Shown here: one piece after another, positions 4,266-22,616 of the stretch
Layout: each line of letters opens with the position of its first letter
Numbering within the stretch: position 1 is the first letter of the stretch
Origin: a virus
Virus record (IMG/VR): IMGVR_UViG_3300045988_177309
Location: 1-32,169 of that record
Reading direction: 5' to 3' (one strand)
Length of the DNA stretch: 32,169 nt
Translations under genes and position numbers: made by a program
Notes under the pieces: model-generated
What the model saw: only the letters and a program-made list of their open reading frames with translations
Told to the model about the DNA's origin: nothing
The model's database searches: none

Positions 4266-4332
4266 CGGCTTTTTGGACAGAAGTTATTTATACATTAAAA
4301 AGATTCTTGTAGTCTAATAGAGGCCTCTTGAT

Positions 4333-4393
4333 TGTAACTATGTTTGTCATACCCATATATTATAATAGACCTGACAAACATAGTTACAATGAG
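4333..4393. repeat. 18-bp perfect inverted repeat ttgtaactatgtttgtca / tgacaaacatagttacaa around a 25-nt AT-rich spacer
   Basis: Read from the sequence. Lies 40 bp upstream of the first plus-strand gene. Confidence 0.8.
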
Positions 4394-4435
4394 CCCGTTG
4401 AGGTTGGTACATTATAATAAAGGAGTATAAAATTT

Positions 4436-5113
4436 ATGGTTATTGAAACAAGTCATTTTTATGTGTTTAAAAAAGAGTTTTGTAAAATGTTAAGAATACC
4501 GGATAATCAAGCAGACAGACGATTGAATGAATTATTAGATTGGTTAACTAATTTTTTTGATTTTGATTTTTATAAAGGTCATCCTAATCGAATTTTTATT
4601 AAAGAAGTATATGGGGATTATTAGCCTTTACCAAAAAGACCTCCAAGGCAAGATGCTTTAAATTAGTTAAAAAAAGAACGATATGATGAATATACTAAAA
4701 ATCAGTTTAATAAAAATATTTATGAACCTAATAGTATAATGAGAGTTGCTCGAAATGCTAGAGATGAGTTTGGCGAGGAAGAGTTTGGCCACACTAATGT
4801 TGAGGCTGTAGCACGCAGGTATGTAAAAGAATCTTTTTATAAGTATGGTGAAAATAATAATCATTTTATTTGGGTTGATTATTATGATTATTAGCCTTTA
4901 TCTGATGAATTATTGCTTGCTTGGAAGGAAATTAGAAGACAAGAGAATATCGATGAAGAAGAAGCTGCAAATGCTTTTTATGCTCAAGAGAATGGTGAAG
5001 ATATTTCTAAGTAGAAGAATGCTTATAAAGTAGCTTTAAGAAAGTTTAAAGAGCGATATGGTATTATTCCGGTTTGTGTTAAAGAATGGCGATTAAAGAG
5101 AACAGATAATTAA
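4436..5113 (+). CDS. hypothetical HTH-like protein; CDS contains about 4 in-frame TAG codons (read as sense)
   Basis: Track ORF 4436..4624 continues in the same frame through TAGs at about 4621, 4663, 4892 and 5012 to a TAA at 5111-5113. No TAA or TGA lies in the frame. RBS AAAGGAG upstream. Confidence 0.6.
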
Positions 5114-5446
5114 AAAATTCAATTAGGTATCAGCGTGGAGTGAAATAAAAAAAAATAGAAAATTGGGGAGGTGTAGTGACAGATCCCTTACTCCAACACC
5201 ACATTTATTTTATCGAACCCGTTATCATATTATCTTCCTCCTGGGCTTGTGCGCCAAGTTTACAATTTGATAAAAATATGTTATTATATATATAATGAAA
5301 AAAAAAATCAAATTTTGATTTCAAAACTGAAAATTCAATTCAAAAAACGAAATGAAAACTCCATTCTAAAATTCTCATTTTGAAACAAATTAAAACAGTT
5401 GTGTTAGTTGTTCTATTTTTTTACACCGGAAGAAAAGGAACACATT

Positions 5447-15934: not shown

Positions 15935-16000
15935 AAAGTAAGACTTAGAGTAAAGTCTAAAATTTCGGAGCGAGGCTCCGAAAGGAGGTTCTAAAAAACT

Positions 16001-17075
16001 TTTGATAAAATTAGATTATTCTTTAGAAACTCCAGAAGAAAGAGTACAATTAGTAGAGCAAATTTTGGCTGAATAGCCTAATCCTCCTCAAAAATACATA
16101 GAAATTTTAACTGATTATCTAGTTATGTGCATGGAGCGTCAAGAACGCCGTGAGCGCAAAATATTAACTGAGAATCGTTTGGCGACAGTTAATAAACGTG
16201 AAACCTCTTTTGAAGGTCTTGTATCACAACTAGAAAGTGGCGAAGATGGAATCTATAATCTCATTCATGAAAATAAGAACCAAATATTTAAACCAAAAGT
16301 AAGAATAACAAAAAAAGACATTGAAGAAATACCCGAACTCCAACAAATAAGAGATTCCATTGAATTTTGGGAAAAAAAGGCAAAAACCGCACAAGGTCGC
16401 GAAGCATTTATTATACGAAAAACAATTATTGAATTGCGCAAAGATCAATACCTTGTGAAAGACTCTTTCCGATAGCCCATTCAAGCAAGTTCAACCGCGC
16501 ATTCACGTGGTATCTATAAACTTACTTATGATGATAAAACTTGCAATTTTGATGAAGAAGGATATCCAATTCCTTCTGGTCTCTCTCTTTTGGATCCAAA
16601 CATTTGTTCGACAATCTTATGTTTATATTCTAAATTAAAACAAGATGGTTATAGTGAATTCATTGGTGATTTATACTATCTTATGGAAGATTTTGATAAA
16701 ATTTCTATTATTGCGCTTGCGCCTTATCCTATTTATCAAAAATTAGTATTATATAAAATAGATGGCCGACAAAACGCTGAAATACAAAATTTATTACAAA
16801 CAGAATTTGGTATTACTCATAGTCTTGAATACCTTTCGAGTCTTTGGCGTAATAAAATTCCTAAATTAATAGCCAGTGCCGCAGAAGATCAATATCTTGA
16901 ATGGTATTACCTTAATGCTGAAAAAGGCAAATATAAAAGATGTAGCTGCTGTGGACAAATTAAATTAGCTCATAATAAATATTTTTCTAAAAATAAAACT
17001 AGCAAAGATGGTTATTACAGCATTTGTAAAAAATGTCGCAATGCTAAAAGTAAAAAAAGAAAAAGGAAGAAATAA
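16001..17075 (+). CDS. hypothetical protein with C-terminal Zn-ribbon (CSCCGQ...CKKC) and basic tail; 1 in-frame TAG
   Basis: Track ORFs 16125..16475 and 16590..17075 share a frame through the TAG at 16473. The frame stays open upstream to a TTG at about 16001, 11 nt after AAAGGAGG. The start is uncertain and may be 16125. Confidence 0.5.
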
Positions 17076-17078
17076 TTT

Positions 17079-18266
17079 ATGAGCGAGTTACATTATTGTA
17101 AAAAATGTAATCGAACCATGAATGGGGAACAATTTTATTCTTCTAACAATTTAGAAAAATACCCTGATAATGGTAAATTTGATATTTGCAAGAAATGTAT
17201 GACTATGCATGTAGATAATTGGGATCCAAACACTTACCTTTGGATCCTAGAAGAAGCTGACGTGCCTTATGTTCCCGATGAATGGAATAAATTGATGGCA
17301 AAGTATGCCAATAATCCAGAAAAATTAACTGGTATGACTATTCTAGGGCGTTATCTCTCTAAAATGAAACTTAAACAATTTAGAGATTATCGATGGAAAG
17401 ATACCGCTTTCTTGCAAGAATTGACACAAAGTAAAATTGAGCAAACAATGAAACGCTCCGGTTATGATGCTTAGCAAATTGCCGAAGCTATTAATAAGGT
17501 TACTTTTACTTTTGATGAACATTATGAATAGCCTCCAATTCCTGCTTCGAATGAATGTAGTGAATCTGAAGATTATTTTGACCAATAGAATGATATTTCT
17601 ATTCCAGAAGAAACGTTTGATTTAACCGACGAAGAAAAATTAATGTTGCGTCTTAAATGGGGAAAAACTTATAAACCAGAAGAATGGATTAAACTTGAAC
17701 AATTATATAATGAATTTCTTTAGTCTTATGATATTCAAAGCGCAGGACATATTGATACTCTTAAATTGATATGCAAAACCTCTCTTAAAGCCAATTAGTT
17801 AATCGATATTGGAGATGTAGAAGGTTTTCAAAAAATGAGCCGGGTGTATGATAATTTAATGAAGAGCGGTAAGTTTACTGCTGCTCAAAACAAAGCCGAA
17901 TCTGGGGAATATGTAAATTCAATTTCTGAACTTGTTACTTTATGTGAATAGCAAGGTTTTATTCCTCGTTATTATGTATCTACACCGCAAGATAAAGTTG
18001 ATGAAACTTTATAGGATACTAAAAATTATGTGCGGACTTTAGTTACCGAAGAAATGAACTTAGGTAATTTAATTGAATCTTCAATACGCACAATGAATTA
18101 TGAAGAAAATAAAGAAGAAGATGAAGATATCGAAGATGAAATAATGGAAGATGTAGTTCCTGAAATTACTGATGAAGACTTCATGGAGCAAGAGGAATTT
18201 CTTGAGTCTGAACAAGAGAAAGATGCGCGATTGACTGAAGAATTGGCCTTGGGCAAAAATAATTAA
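17079..18266 (+). CDS. hypothetical protein (N-terminal CxxC...CxxC, acidic C-terminus); 7 in-frame TAGs
   Basis: Track ORFs 17079..17474 and 18030..18266 share a frame. The frame stays open through TAGs at about 17473, 17528, 17585, 17720, 17798, 17949 and 18010, with no TAA or TGA. TAA at 18264-66. Confidence 0.6.
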
Positions 18267-18937
18267 TGGCATTACAAGAACTTTTAAATTTATAGTCTCG
18301 ATACAATAAATTAGGGCTTTCTGAAGAGCGCGTAACTGCAATTCTTCCAGTAGTGCGTGAATATGTAGCATTCTGGCGTGAATACCCAGATATGTTTATT
18401 GATTTCCTTTTGGAAGCGGGGAACCCTTAGAATTTTCATCTTTATTTTTATCAACGAGTATTTTTACGTGCGGCAATGCGGCATAAATATGTGTATGCAG
18501 TTTACCCGCGCGCCTATTCAAAATCGTTTCTTGCAATTATGATTTTAATGATACGTTGCATTCTCTATCCCAAGTGTAAACTTTTCGTTACTTCGGGTGG
18601 TAAAGAATAGGCGGCTGGTATCATAAAGGAAAAAGTACAAGAAATATGTAATCTTATTCCAGCAATGGATAAAGAAATAGATTATCGACCTGGTCAAACT
18701 AGATTTATTAAAGACCAAACTACAATAGTATTTAAAAATGGCTCTTATTTTGATAATATTGCAGCGCGTGAAACCTCTCGTGGTAAACGTCGTCATGGTG
18801 GAGTCATAGAAGAATGTGTTGGAGTCGATGGCGATATACTGTCCCAAGTTATTATTCCCACAATGAACATTTCACGTATGTGTATGGATGGAACAACATA
18901 GCCTGAAGAAACGCTCAATAAGTCCCAAATTTATGTT
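18266..18937 (+). CDS. terL: terminase large subunit, exon 1 (ATPase domain)
   Basis: ATG overlaps the upstream TAA (TAATG). ...AVYPRAYSKSFLAIM... (deviant Walker A) ...ETLNKSQIYV coupling motif. In-frame TAGs. The frame then degenerates and hits TAA at 19007, so the exon must end near 18937. Confidence 0.65.
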
Positions 18938-19530
18938 AATTTTTTGGTCATTTTACGTTACTTAAATGTATTAATTTTAAAGAGAAAAAAGCCCATTCTA
19001 CCATTATAAAATCTAAAAGAAAGCTTACGCAAGAACAAGTTTTTATGATTTATGTAAATAATGAATAGAATATTATTCCAAAAACATATCTTTGTAATAT
19101 GTTTAATATCACTAGTAATACAATTTATACTATTTTAAATCAAAAATCTTATCAAGATTATTGGCAAGATTATCAAAAATTAACGAATGATCAAAAAGAA
19201 CAATTAGCATCATTGTTGCGAAAGCAACAACAGCAAACCCCTTGAATTGCTGGGAAGCCCTAAAAAATAGGGTAATCAGCAGCCAAGCCTTGAATAAAGG
19301 AAGGTTCAACGACTATCTCAATATGAGAGTAGAGGCAAGCGTCTCGAAGTGGGGGGCCCTTAGCAGGTAAAGCTGAAGGTGAAGATATAGTCTTTTCTAT
19401 ATAGTAATATATAGCAGTTCATAAGAGAACGTATTTAATTTAGCGAATTAAATAGAAAAATAAAGAACAACTGCGGGATACAAAAACACATATGCTTATG
19501 ATAAACTTATTTAGTTGTTAGTTTGGTAGA
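18938..19530 (+). mobile_element. group I (IA-like) self-splicing intron interrupting terL; boundaries approximate
   Basis: P GAATTGCTGGGAAGC 19245-59. P5 hairpin ccct-aaaaaat-aggg. Q AATCAGCAGCC 19274-84. P6 ccttgaataaaagg. R GTTCAACGACTA 19304-15. P8 tctca-ata-tgaga. S AAGATATAGTC 19382-92 (GACUA:UAGUC P7). P9 ctatata-gtaa-tatatag. All in canonical order. Confidence 0.7.
19045..19245 (+). CDS. intron-internal ORF, HTH-like (possible degenerate homing-endonuclease DNA-binding module); contains 1 in-frame TAG
   Basis: Frame differs from both exons. MIYVNNE(Q)NIIPKTYLCNMFNITSNTIYTILNQKSY... resembles a NUMOD/HTH motif. TGA stop at 19243-45. Confidence 0.25.
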
Positions 19531-20525
19531 TCGTAAGACCAGAACGTTCAATTATTCTCGGAGGTACTTACCGCATCCCAGTTCTTATGAAGCTTCTGGA
19601 TAAAAGCTTTGTTCAAGACTTGCGTATGGATGGTACCTTTAATGAAAGTGCATTTTAGCGAGAATATGAGTCGAAATGGTCTGGCACAGTAGAGGATGCA
19701 TTCTTTAATCCAGAAGTTTTTGAACGTAATCGCATTCTTAATCAGCCAGAATATGAACTTTCTGGACGTGCATCAAAACAATCTTATTATGTGCTTTCTG
19801 TGGATGTTGGTCGCAAACAATGCGACACTGTTGTTTGCGTTTTTAATGTCATTCCATAGTAGCAAGGTACATCAATAAAAAAATTGGTTAACATATTTGT
19901 ATTAACTGATGAACATTTTGAAGATCAAGCAATAAGATTAAAGCAATTATATTATAAATTTAAAGCACGTCGTATTGTAATTGATGCGAATGGATTAGGT
20001 ATTGGACTTGTAGATTATATGATAAAAACTCAAGTTAACCCTGAAACAAATGAAACTTATTATGATTTTGGTGTTTATAATGATGAAGATAATTATTACA
20101 AAAAATATAGAACCATTTTCACAGAACAAGATGCAATGTATTTAATTAAAGCTAATGCGCCATTAAATACTGATGCTCATGCGAATGCACAATCTTAGCT
20201 ATCTTCTGGAAAAGTAAAATTTTTAATTGATGTTCAAACAGCCAAAGCGAAATTGCTTAATACAAAAGTTGGCCAAAATATGAGTCCTGAACAAAGGACA
20301 GATTATTTAAAACCATTTAATTACACTTCCATATTAAAAGAAGAAATGTTGAATCTTCGTGAAGAAAATGAAGGTATTAATATTAATTTAAAACAAATAA
20401 ATCGCGGAATACGAAAAGACAAATTTTCTGCGTTTGAATATGGGTTATATTATATTAAACATGAAGAAGATGACAAGAAAAAACGTAAAAGATTTAATGC
20501 AAAAGATTGGGCTTTTTTTAATTAA
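19530..20525 (+). CDS. terL: terminase large subunit, exon 2 (linker + RNaseH-like nuclease domain)
   Basis: ...FQREYESKWSGTVEDAFFNP... then ...YYVLSVDVGRKQCDTVVCVFN... and IVIDANGLGIGLVDYM. In-frame TAGs at about 19656, 19857-62 (double) and 20196. Track ORFs 19884.. and 20253..20525 share the frame. TAA at 20523-25. Confidence 0.7.
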
Positions 20526-20634
20526 AGGAGAAATAAAATATGAAAAGTTTTGCAGTAATAGCCAATAAAGCTATTAGAAGTTTTGATACGACTATATTAA
20601 ATTATACTGATATTGCTATGAGGTATTATCAACA

Positions 20635-20994
20635 GTGCGAGCTTCACGAGCGGAAATTAAAATTGAAGAAATCCTGCGTGACGCAGGTTTAAATTTTAAA
20701 ATGGAGTATATTTTTCCTGATTTAAAAAGTCCCAATGGACGTCCTTTGCGTTTTGATTTTGTTGTTTTTGATGATGATGGACGTATTGATTTTATTATTG
20801 AATATTAGGGTAAACAACATTACCAACCAAGTAGTAAATTTGGTGGTAAACGAGGTTTTTATCAACAACAATATAATGATAATCAAAAGCGTCGATTTTG
20901 CGCTTTGCATGATTTTAATTTAATAGAGATTCCGTATAATGAAGAAAATCTCATTTCTTATGATTATATTATGAATAAGGCCTACGGCTGGTGA
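20635..20994 (+). CDS. small endonuclease-like protein (restriction-endonuclease-fold/Vsr-like motif ...RFDFVVFDDDGRIDFIIEY-Q-GKQHY...LIEIPY); 1 in-frame TAG
   Basis: Frame opens after the TGA at 20608-10. Candidate starts are GTG 20635 or ATG 20701. TAG sits inside the conserved E-Y-x-G-x-Q-H block. TGA stop overlaps the portal RBS GAAGGAGGTG. Confidence 0.5.
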
Positions 20995-21008
20995 AGGAGG
21001 TGCGTAAT

Positions 21009-22616
21009 TTGGATAAATCCCGAACCTAGCAAATTCATGATAAAGGTTTTGCAATGGTTGATGGATACGCCTATTATCGCACAGACGCACCTAATGAATA
21101 TAAGAAAATTCGTATTGGAGTAAAATCTGTTGAAGACGCTGTGCTTCAACTAGGTTCTTATTGCCCTAATCCAAAAGATAAAGGTAATCATGGTCCTGCC
21201 ATTAATAAAGGCATGATTATTAAAGCTTTAATGGAACATGATGTTAAAGAATAGCGGAGAATTTCTAATCTTTTTTATGAAATAAATGGTATTTATCAAA
21301 AAGTATGTAATTATTTTGCTTATCTTTATCGTTATGATTGGTATGTAGATCCAAAAGTTTATGAAGATGCCAATGTTGAGAAAGTCTTAAAAAACTTTGC
21401 TAGTGTATTAGATTTTCTTGATAAATCTTATATTAAAAAAGTGTGTGGCGATATAGCTTTAGAAGTAGTTAAAAGTGGCGCCTATTATGGATATATTGTT
21501 AATATAAACAAAAGCTTAGTATTACAATAGCTGCCGACTGATTACTGCCGCTCCCGTTATAATGTTGGTTCAACTCCTGCAATAGAATTTGATATGAGAT
21601 ATTTTGATACGTTTAGAGATACTAATTATCGTATGCGTATCTTAAAGTTATTTCCTGATGAATTCTCAAAAGGATATTTACTTTATAAATAGGGTAAATT
21701 ACAACCTGACTTTGCTGGAGATAATTAGGGAAGTTGGTATTTACTTGAACCAGAAAATACTATAAAATTTAATTTATTGCATCATGATTTACCAATGTTT
21801 GTGAATGCAATTCCTGCGATTCTTGATTTGGATGCCGCCCAAGACTTAGACCGCAAGAAACAAATGCAGCAATTATTAAAAATTGTTGTACAAAAATTGC
21901 CACGAGACAAAAATGGTGATTTAATATTTGATGTTGAAGAAGCTAGAGATATACACAACAATGCAGTAGAAATGTTGCGTCGTGCTGTTGGAGTTGATGT
22001 TTTAACAACATTTACAGATGTTGATTCTATTGATATGTCTGATAAAAATACTTCAACCACTAAAGATGATTTAGAAAAAGTTGAACGCACTGTTTATAAT
22101 GCATTAGGTATTTCGCGCAATTTGTTTAATACGGATGGCAATTTATCTTTGGAAAAATCAATTCTTAATGATGAATCTTCTATGCGTAAATTATTGCTTC
22201 AATTTGAACAATTCTTTGATCGTATTATAAGTCAAAAATATAAAAATAGTAAATGTATTTTTAATTTTTGTATGTTAGAAACGACTCAATATAATTATAA
22301 AGAATTAGCAAAATTATATAAAGAACAATCTTAGATTGGTTTCTCAAAGATGTTACCTTAGATTGCTCTTGGACATTCTTAGAGTTTCATTTTGAATTCT
22401 GCCCACTTTGAGAATGATATATTAAAGTTATATGAAATTATGATTCCTCCGCTTATGAGTTCTACTATGAGTAGTGATTTAATTTTGGGTAACAAAGAGC
22501 AAAGTAATTAGACAAAAAATCAAACAAATTAGGATAGTAAAGAAATTGGTCGTCCAGAAAAATCTGATGACCAAAAGAGCGAAAAAACTATCTAGAATAA
22601 AGAATCTATGAGTTAA
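21009..22616 (+). CDS. portal protein (putative, about 535 aa); at least 10 in-frame TAGs
   Basis: Track ORFs 21054..21254 and 21777..22334 share a frame that stays open from TTG 21009 (5 nt after GGAGGTG) to TAA 22614-16. Synteny: terL, nuclease, this gene, scaffold. Size is typical of portals. Confidence 0.55.

Follow-up and report, generated by a model that had tools for sequence, protein, structure and literature searches.

The 32,169-nucleotide stretch of viral DNA that we analysed (IMG/VR record IMGVR_UViG_3300045988_177309, positions 1-32169, 35% GC; hereafter the window) carries, between the genes for the large terminase subunit (terL) and the portal protein, a small plus-strand gene at 20635-20994 whose 119-residue product is, judging from its modelled fold, a stand-alone Vsr-type PD-(D/E)XK endonuclease of the DUF2726/EDxHD branch. 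The gene is vertically inherited and is under stronger protein-level constraint than either terL or the portal gene. That it is an intact, functional nuclease gene of this type, fixed in its place and passed on vertically, we regard as very probable. As an explanation of the whole we favour, with more modest confidence, the capture of a homing-endonuclease catalytic domain that is now a fixed late nuclease.

The reading frame is open as of 20611, with a GTG start codon at 20635, an in-frame TAG at 20806-20808 and a TGA stop at 20992-20994, and with the TAG read as glutamine the product is MRASRAEIKIEEILRDAGLNFKMEYIFPDLKSPNGRPLRFDFVVFDDDGRIDFIIEYQGKQHYQPSSKFGGKRGFYQQQYNDNQKRRFCALHDFNLIEIPYNEENLISYDYIMNKAYGW. 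Like terL and portal it is read from the plus strand, and it fits tightly between the two, its stop lying inside the portal Shine-Dalgarno sequence. A first-pass annotation of this DNA, made by a model from the letters and a list of open reading frames (ORFs), had already placed the TGA over the portal ribosome binding site, and indeed its A is the first base of AAGGAGGTG (20994-21002, plus strand), a layout shared by the relative L001. In relatives the nuclease stop abuts or overlaps the portal Shine-Dalgarno sequence or start codon.

The occupancy of this slot is close to universal among related phages. The nuclease gene sits there in all 80 of the IMG/VR loci closest to the window portal, and in 76 of the 78 evaluable loci of a second, much more divergent IMG/VR sample. 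Altogether about 173 loci have an ORF in the slot on the same strand, and 161 of these ORFs are 117-131 aa long. Carriers that use the standard genetic code include the relative L009 and the gut contig MT836163 (68% identity), and the cultured Enterococcus phages H1, EF1, EF5 and VRE9_1-4 carry a slot orthologue at 51% identity. The order YonG-terL-[gene]-portal-YonD is kept around stand-alone homologues that are 51, 47, 45 and 36% identical; one homologue at 34% identity is located elsewhere. The exceptions within the clade are L152 and L156, in which the terL stop overlaps the portal start and a 323-aa zinc-finger and Vsr-like endonuclease is found inside terL instead. In the papers that could be searched we found no account of a Vsr-like gene with a conserved place at the terL-portal junction.

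Farther out, terL adjoins portal with no nuclease gene between them in Lactococcus phage 949, Bacillus phage Tsamsa, Staphylococcus SPbeta-like phages and C. difficile phage phiCD211, all at about 25% portal identity; in these phages and in L152 the two genes are 14-24 nt apart or overlap. In a neighbour-joining portal tree the phages that lack the nuclease gene make up the outgroup, and L152 branches at the base. Because the lineages without the gene form the outgroup, a single ancient gain fits the distribution, and because distant relatives join terL directly to portal, the gene is an insertion at that depth. The first-pass annotation had proposed looking for a mobile-insertion signature in the presence or absence of the gene among related genomes. 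The junction is empty in distant relatives, as such a signature would have it; within the clade, where the slot is filled in 80 of 80 and 76 of 78 loci, there is no presence/absence pattern.

Comparison of the gene with its flanks points the same way. Nei-Gojobori estimates over 2,016 pairs gave median proportions of synonymous differences (pS) of 0.677 for the nuclease gene, 0.635 for the C-terminal part of terL and 0.651 for portal, all saturated and equal. The corresponding proportions of non-synonymous differences (pN) were 0.132, 0.190 and 0.248, and nuclease pN was below portal pN in 99% of the pairs. The Spearman correlation of pN was 0.70 between nuclease and portal, 0.60 between terL and portal and 0.44 between nuclease and terL. 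None of the pairs combined a close nuclease with distant flanks, and no signature of recent horizontal spread or co-conversion was found among them. Closure of the frame by stops in close relatives, which the first-pass annotation had named as evidence that would tell against the gene, is not what we see: all 173 slot copies reach their stop codon with TAG read as glutamine. Since a selfish endonuclease without empty sites should decay, and the slot nuclease has not, we argue that it has a function at the level of the organism. Among 40 closely related pairs, nuclease pS came to about 0.7 of the terL and portal values and was the lower in 75%; as the pairs are not independent and the gene has only about 80 synonymous sites, we treat this as noise, although it could be a mild constraint at the nucleotide level.

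The family to which the protein belongs is large. Homologues at E<=1e-3 numbered over 2,200 in a database clustered at 90% identity, the top 120 of them being 118-119 aa long and 83-91% identical, and a library clustered at 50%, queried with a protein 91% identical to that of the window (P0001), returned 11,653 cluster representatives at the same threshold. By these matches the ORF is a gene far beyond chance. The protein matches PHROG 9084, labelled 'homing endonuclease', at 1.2e-27, and PHROGs 559 and 7140 (HNH and intron-encoded nucleases) match as an internal domain. Against Pfam DUF2726 (PF10881) it scores 20.8 bits (E 3.3e-4), under the gathering threshold of 24.7 bits; 22 of 34 diverse homologues match the same model at E<=0.01, the best at 8.6e-8, and the protein P0163 reaches 25.8 bits. 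Such scores place the family at the edge of the Pfam DUF2726 model, and the DUF2726/DUF559 PD-(D/E)XK clan together with PHROG 9084 is its home at the sequence level. Searches of NCBIfam and PADLOC gave no match. Searches of PDB sequences, with the protein and with a profile of 34 sequences, gave chance matches only (cartilage acidic protein and circovirus Rep, E 0.04-1.5), and for this reason the link to a fold rests on structure prediction.

The architecture of the window protein is the minimal one. Many of the 50%-cluster representatives are 230-440 aa long and end in the nuclease domain, which follows DUF4379 zinc fingers, CapR or helix-turn-helix modules. They have the architecture of classical homing enzymes, as do the 'VSR homing endonucleases' that introns of Staphylococcus and Enterococcus phages carry. 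In the window protein there is nothing but the catalytic domain, whose fold fills all 119 residues and leaves no DNA-binding module.

An AlphaFold (AF2) model built from a diverse alignment has a predicted local distance difference test score (pLDDT) of 95 and a predicted template modelling score (pTM) of 0.86. The predicted fold is alpha-beta-beta-beta-alpha-beta, with a restriction-endonuclease-like core that can be superimposed on Vsr and on I-Bth0305I, and a survey of PD-(D/E)XK proteins groups 'VSR, DUF559, DUF2726' together (PMC3424549). The first-pass suggestion of a small Vsr-like nuclease with the restriction-endonuclease fold, which was to fall if no nuclease fold could be recognised, is thus supported by the AF2 fold and the PHROG 9084 match. 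Over 108 distinct slot proteins, D41, E56, G59, H62, D82 and K85 are invariant (108/108), 106 retain E7, and residue 58 is either Q (98 proteins) or N (10 proteins). The catalytic pattern described for this family is E..D..x..H..D, the reference residues being E25, D51, H64, H69 and D97 in Vsr and E170, D196, N208, H213 and D222 in I-Bth0305I (PMC3239194). The conserved residues of the slot proteins follow in the family order as E7, D41, Q/N58, H62 and D82, with a spacing of 4 rather than 5 between Q58 and H62. We propose E7, D41, E56, Q/N58, H62, D82 and K85 as candidate active-site residues.

The in-frame TAG falls inside the motif that the first pass had called the most conserved: it is codon 58, within the predicted active-site strand IEYQGKQH. 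When 64 non-identical orthologues are aligned by codon, this column reads CAA in 44, CAG in one and TAG in 19, which confirms its reading as glutamine. Orthologue DNA was also read directly, with CAA or CAG as codon 58 and TAG at other conserved glutamine positions. Of the 101 TAGs in the nuclease genes of this alignment, 88 sit at five columns (58, 61, 77, 78 and 79) that are otherwise all or nearly all glutamine, and glutamine is the commonest partner residue of TAG in portal and terL as well. Because TAG alternates with CAA and CAG at conserved glutamine columns, its presence within the motif is ordinary, and codon 58 reads as a common glutamine codon in a TAG-recoded phage. Nor is it a peculiarity of this gene, as it might have seemed: the portal frame holds 11 in-frame TAGs and the terL pieces 4-7, the whole late region is recoded, and freeing TAG raises the long plus-strand ORF content of the window from 4,616 to 8,208 codons. 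This codon usage suggests that the nuclease gene belongs to the late, recoded gene set. The swapping of TAG with CAA at five invariant glutamine columns makes it an unusually clean proof, at the level of a single gene, of the reassignment of TAG to glutamine.

If the TAG were instead a true stop, the locus would be a decaying pseudogene or would encode a 57-aa fragment only, and under translation table 11 the ORF does end at 20808. The part of the protein after the TAG, however, is as conserved as the part before it and holds the invariant H62, D82 and K85; CAA or CAG replaces TAG at five conserved glutamine columns; and terL and portal, like the long ORF content of the plus strand that recoding more than doubles, depend on the recoding. 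We give the true-stop reading a negligible probability, and reject the pseudogene, given that the TAG columns are glutamine and that all 173 slot copies are read through. ARAGORN found no tRNA gene in the window, and hence no TAG suppressor tRNA there; as the late genes use TAG heavily, the suppressor tRNA must sit elsewhere in the genome, and related contigs are 160-197 kb long.

The first-pass annotation found no ATG with a good ribosome binding site for the nuclease frame, and offered a GTG start or a frameshift from an overlapping upstream mini-ORF as ways in which it might be expressed. The start is indeed not an ATG, but a Shine-Dalgarno motif, GAGG at 20620-20623 (plus strand), lies 11 nt before the GTG, and motif and spacing are conserved in the closest IMG/VR relative, L014 (98% protein identity). 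The orthologues begin at the same codon as the window gene, and L014 has ATG in place of its GTG. Every sequence retrieved among the top 120 homologues has an M(R/N)ASR N-terminus that aligns to the window GTG, and of the 173 slot loci, 143 have ATG as their aligned first codon, 14 have GTG and nine TTG. These alignments indicate that the nuclease is translated from GTG 20635 behind GAGG, without a frameshift.

The mini-ORF itself is present where it had been placed: 50 codons at 20540-20692 on the plus strand, preceded by a Shine-Dalgarno sequence (AAAGGAG, 20527-20533), in another frame and overlapping the 5' end of the nuclease gene by 58 nt. Its strong Shine-Dalgarno sequence and ATG, set against the GTG of the nuclease frame, and the overlap of the two frames across 20611-20692 would allow a programmed -1 shift from ATG 20540, yielding a product about 30 aa longer. 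We saw no X XXY YYZ slippery heptamer on inspection of that overlap, although the first pass had suggested that one be sought in this neighbourhood. Orthologue starts align with the GTG, and the N-terminal extensions of a few database entries are unrelated to one another; no extension is conserved. In relatives of the L001 type the nuclease start is 12 nt past the terL stop; with a gap that short, there is no room for an upstream ORF. The mini-ORF occurs outside the window in L014 alone, where a 10-nt indel shifts its frame relative to the nuclease gene. A frameshifted product is accordingly very improbable, though marginally less so than termination at the TAG.

What the mini-ORF may be is suggested by its surroundings. 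It has no match in family searches, its first 20 codons differ between the window and L014 by five non-synonymous changes and one synonymous change, and it is probably not a conserved protein gene. The 109-nt spacer between terL and the nuclease gene in which it begins (20526-20634, plus strand) is confined to the window/L014 lineage, L014 being its sole match in blastn; among relatives the spacer ranges from 11 nt to more than 1.5 kb, with a median of 77 nt and a lower quartile of 14 nt. The arrangement TAA-AAGGAG-N8-ATG at 20523-20542 resembles the context of terL stop, Shine-Dalgarno sequence and ATG found immediately before the nuclease gene of most relatives. The start of the mini-ORF may therefore be the stranded ancestral Shine-Dalgarno sequence and ATG of the nuclease gene, and the comparison suggests that an insertion of about 95 nt displaced the original start in the lineage of the window and L014. 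It is possible that the mini-ORF acts as a translational attenuator. A scan of the spacer for promoters and terminators found nothing convincing. Just before the mini-ORF stop and inside the nuclease coding sequence lies a perfect 6-bp GC-rich hairpin at 20673-20687 (CCTGCG TGA CGCAGG), followed by TTTAAATTTT; L014 retains it in a 5-bp form.

The nuclease gene appears to have been gained a single time at the terL-portal junction, close to the root of a large SPbeta-related (Yon-type) clade of Firmicute phages. We propose that its ancestor was a homing-endonuclease gene which shed its DNA-binding module and became domesticated. The product would be a Mg2+-dependent enzyme that nicks or cuts phage DNA late in infection, probably as a dimer, by analogy with the catalytic domain of I-Bth0305I (PMC3239194). 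Its likeliest role would be alongside the packaging motor, for example in clearing branches or nicks from concatemers or in assisting the cuts of the terminase. A packaging-linked role of this kind, which draws on gene position and co-expression only, is a tentative proposal, to which we give less than even weight; the fuller account, in which a Vsr/EDxHD domain was captured once, lost its targeting module and became a fixed working part of the packaging module of the clade, is somewhat more doubtful still.

Comparison with characterized nucleases shows which parts of the pattern are familiar. One close parallel is the EDxHD family of I-Bth0305I (PDB 3R3P; PMC3239194), with which the slot nuclease appears to share the residue pattern E...D...(N/Q)...H...D. 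Like it, I-Bth0305I is phage-encoded, and many sequence relatives are intron-borne or free-standing endonucleases with DNA-binding modules. Unlike it, I-Bth0305I has 266 aa and an N-terminal NUMOD/helix-turn-helix region, lies in a group I intron and is sporadic, whereas the slot nuclease is a 119-aa catalytic domain only, outside any intron, in a fixed slot and under strong purifying selection; it has no detectable sequence match to 3R3P, and the spacing from Q/N to His is 4 as opposed to 5. E. coli Vsr (PDB 1CW0), a cellular repair enzyme that nicks mismatches, has a zinc site and an N-terminal segment that intercalates; the slot nuclease is 15% identical to it in sequence, and nothing in it points to a T:G mismatch function. 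DUF2726 has no assigned function, and the label of PHROG 9084 is an annotation rather than a test.

Two other groups of phage nucleases resemble it in gene position. The HNH endonucleases encoded beside the terminases of HK97-like cos phages are small stand-alone nucleases of a homing-type family, conserved beside terminase and portal genes and co-expressed with them, and stimulation of terminase has been demonstrated for HNH proteins (PMC3592412). The adjacency and co-orientation with terminase and portal that characterize HK97 gp74-like genes are found for the slot nuclease in about 173 loci. The HNH proteins differ in having a beta-beta-alpha-metal fold rather than PD-(D/E)XK, and in lying upstream of terS rather than between terL and portal. 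Seg and Mob of T4 and the nucleases of ICP1 (PMC10448857) are, like the slot nuclease, inserted between two conserved genes, and here too the terL side is variable with other insertions; they are sporadic in close relatives and have DNA-binding domains, whereas the slot nuclease is clade-universal and catalytic-only. Of the traits expected of a homing endonuclease, the slot nuclease shows insertion between genes that are adjacent in genomes lacking it; sporadic presence, a DNA-binding module and recent spread are absent.

Three accounts of how such a gene is maintained deserve comparison with one another. The slot nuclease might be an active free-standing homing endonuclease, intron-less like T4 seg/mob, that cuts empty terL-portal junctions and copies itself in, and that has become fixed in the sampled clade. 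There is a clear family link to I-Bth0305I and to the intron-associated 'VSR homing endonucleases' of Staphylococcus and Enterococcus phages, the gene is flanked by two conserved essential genes, which adjoin each other in the outgroup phages, and the terL region of this clade is a hot-spot for mobile elements. As the specificity of I-Bth0305I comes mostly from around the cleavage site (PMC3239194), an enzyme reduced to its domain could retain some, and the lower nuclease-terL than nuclease-portal correlation (0.44 against 0.70) fits a recombination boundary on the 5' side. Yet about 160 related loci are without presence/absence polymorphism, synonymous sites are as saturated as those of the flanks with no signature of recent transfer, and the DNA-binding module of the sporadic multi-domain relatives is missing. 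The homing cycle, moreover, predicts decay after fixation, and we find 173 open frames with invariant candidate catalytic residues. We therefore hold selfish maintenance to be unlikely. A somewhat smaller likelihood attaches to a fixed late nuclease that serves an end other than packaging, such as degrading the DNA of the host or of competing phages, keeping out relatives that co-infect the cell, or acting against a host defence. The evidence of conservation and selection speaks for it as much as for the explanation we favour, the TAG codons put it equally in the late, recoded set, and nuclease-less relatives package their DNA regardless. Accessory and anti-defence genes usually move, however, while the terL-portal slot is strictly kept down to 36% identity; PADLOC and NCBIfam gave no match; and late expression fits poorly with the degradation of host DNA.

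The captured and fixed late nuclease that we prefer has its own difficulties. The family at large is familiar chiefly as homing endonucleases, a label that PHROGs also gives it; the orthologue of an Enterococcus phage is already annotated 'homing endonuclease' from that source. Relatives that lack the gene use a TerL of the same type to package their DNA, so the enzyme is not obligatory for this packaging machinery, and the TerL nuclease motifs look intact in carriers and non-carriers alike. Gene position alone is weak evidence of function. Nor is the slot perfectly uniform, as two copies are 101 aa long, four are 254 aa and one is a 296-aa fusion. A further candidate role, that the nuclease replaces a degenerate nuclease domain of TerL, was rejected on inspection, the VDVG/A, IDxNGxGxGLxD and DKxSAxxYG motifs being present in both carriers and non-carriers.

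The terL gene upstream is itself interrupted. Its second exon, which encodes the C-terminal nuclease domain of the large terminase, runs from 19466 to 20525 on the plus strand and ends in a TAA at 20523-20525; it was assigned by translation with TAG as glutamine, by PHROG terminase matches and by collinearity with the intact 580-aa terL of L001 and L014. A group I intron at 18937-19465, with an Rfam core at 19192-19414 (RF00028, 92.7 bits, E 8e-23), separates it from the first exon; the exon boundaries (approximately 18266-18936 and 19466-20525) were inferred from alignment to intact terL and from the U/omega-G rule. The gene is uninterrupted (580 aa) in L014, which is 95-98% identical, and in L001, and the intron is for this reason polymorphic. 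An ORF of 101 codons in its 5' part (18940-19245) has weak helix-turn-helix-like matches (CENP-B_N, 0.016; PHROG 125 DNA invertase, 1e-3) and no nuclease domain, and may be a degraded remnant of a homing endonuclease.

Related loci carry other elements at this place. Inside or at the end of terL lie an HNH_3/NUMOD gene in L004 (7350-8195), a DUF723 gene in L095 (2225-3301) and a LAGLIDADG gene in L070 (approximately 4300-5260), and the 323-aa zinc-finger and Vsr-like gene of L152 occupies 1774-2745 of its contig, in terL. By these matches terL is a hot-spot for homing elements in the clade. The real mobile elements of the clade, the terL intron and the terL endonuclease genes, behave unlike the slot nuclease. 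In L022 (4100-5640), and likewise in L023 and L024, a 1.5-kb cargo between terL and the nuclease gene encodes proteins of 359 and 162 aa, the latter of which looks by eye like a cytidylyltransferase from a GxxxGxFxxxHxGH-like motif. In L181 (5001-5891; P0131) the nuclease frame leaves the family at about residue 100 and continues to a 296-aa protein with HTH_7/HTH_38 matches; insertion of a mobile element into the 3' end of the nuclease gene, or its fusion with that end, may account for this.

Downstream, the portal gene at 21009-22616 (plus strand; PHROG 2739 portal, 1.5e-84) has a TTG start and 11 in-frame TAG codons read as glutamine. Its start is the TTG at 21009 rather than the first ATG at 21054; because the intervening peptide is conserved in L001, the database call for the L001 portal, which begins at the later ATG, is probably too short. 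Upstream of terL, the ORF at 15954-17075 ends in CxxC...CxxC and a basic tail, and the ORF at 17076-18266 begins with CxxC...CxxC; the counterpart of the latter in relatives matches Pfam YonG_N, and both are possibly small-terminase or DNA-recognition components of the packaging module. Neighbouring genes match the SPbeta-type Pfam families YonG_N, YonD_N, YonB, YomW, YomV and YomU, by which the locus is recognizable as a module of an SPbeta-related large siphovirus.

In summary, the protein family, the fold and TAG recoding were already known, and the oddities first flagged at this locus (the TAG in the motif, the missing ATG and the overlapping ORF) are explained. What is worth keeping is a homing-type domain stripped to its catalytic core, locked between terL and portal in about 173 loci and constrained beyond both. 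The 'homing endonuclease' label that PHROG 9084 gives it is probably misleading, a caution for annotators of such genes. The pattern marks the nuclease as a candidate domesticated enzyme with a function at the level of the phage, in a clade that includes both TAG-recoded gut phages and Enterococcus phages H1 and EF1. Since culturable Enterococcus phages (H1, EF1, EF5 and VRE9) use the standard code and have the gene in the same slot, its role is directly testable. If the capture of this domain by the packaging module is true, the enzyme would parallel, with a PD-(D/E)XK fold, either the terminase-assisting HNH proteins known from HK97-like phages or the debranching of the endonuclease VII type that takes place at the portal.

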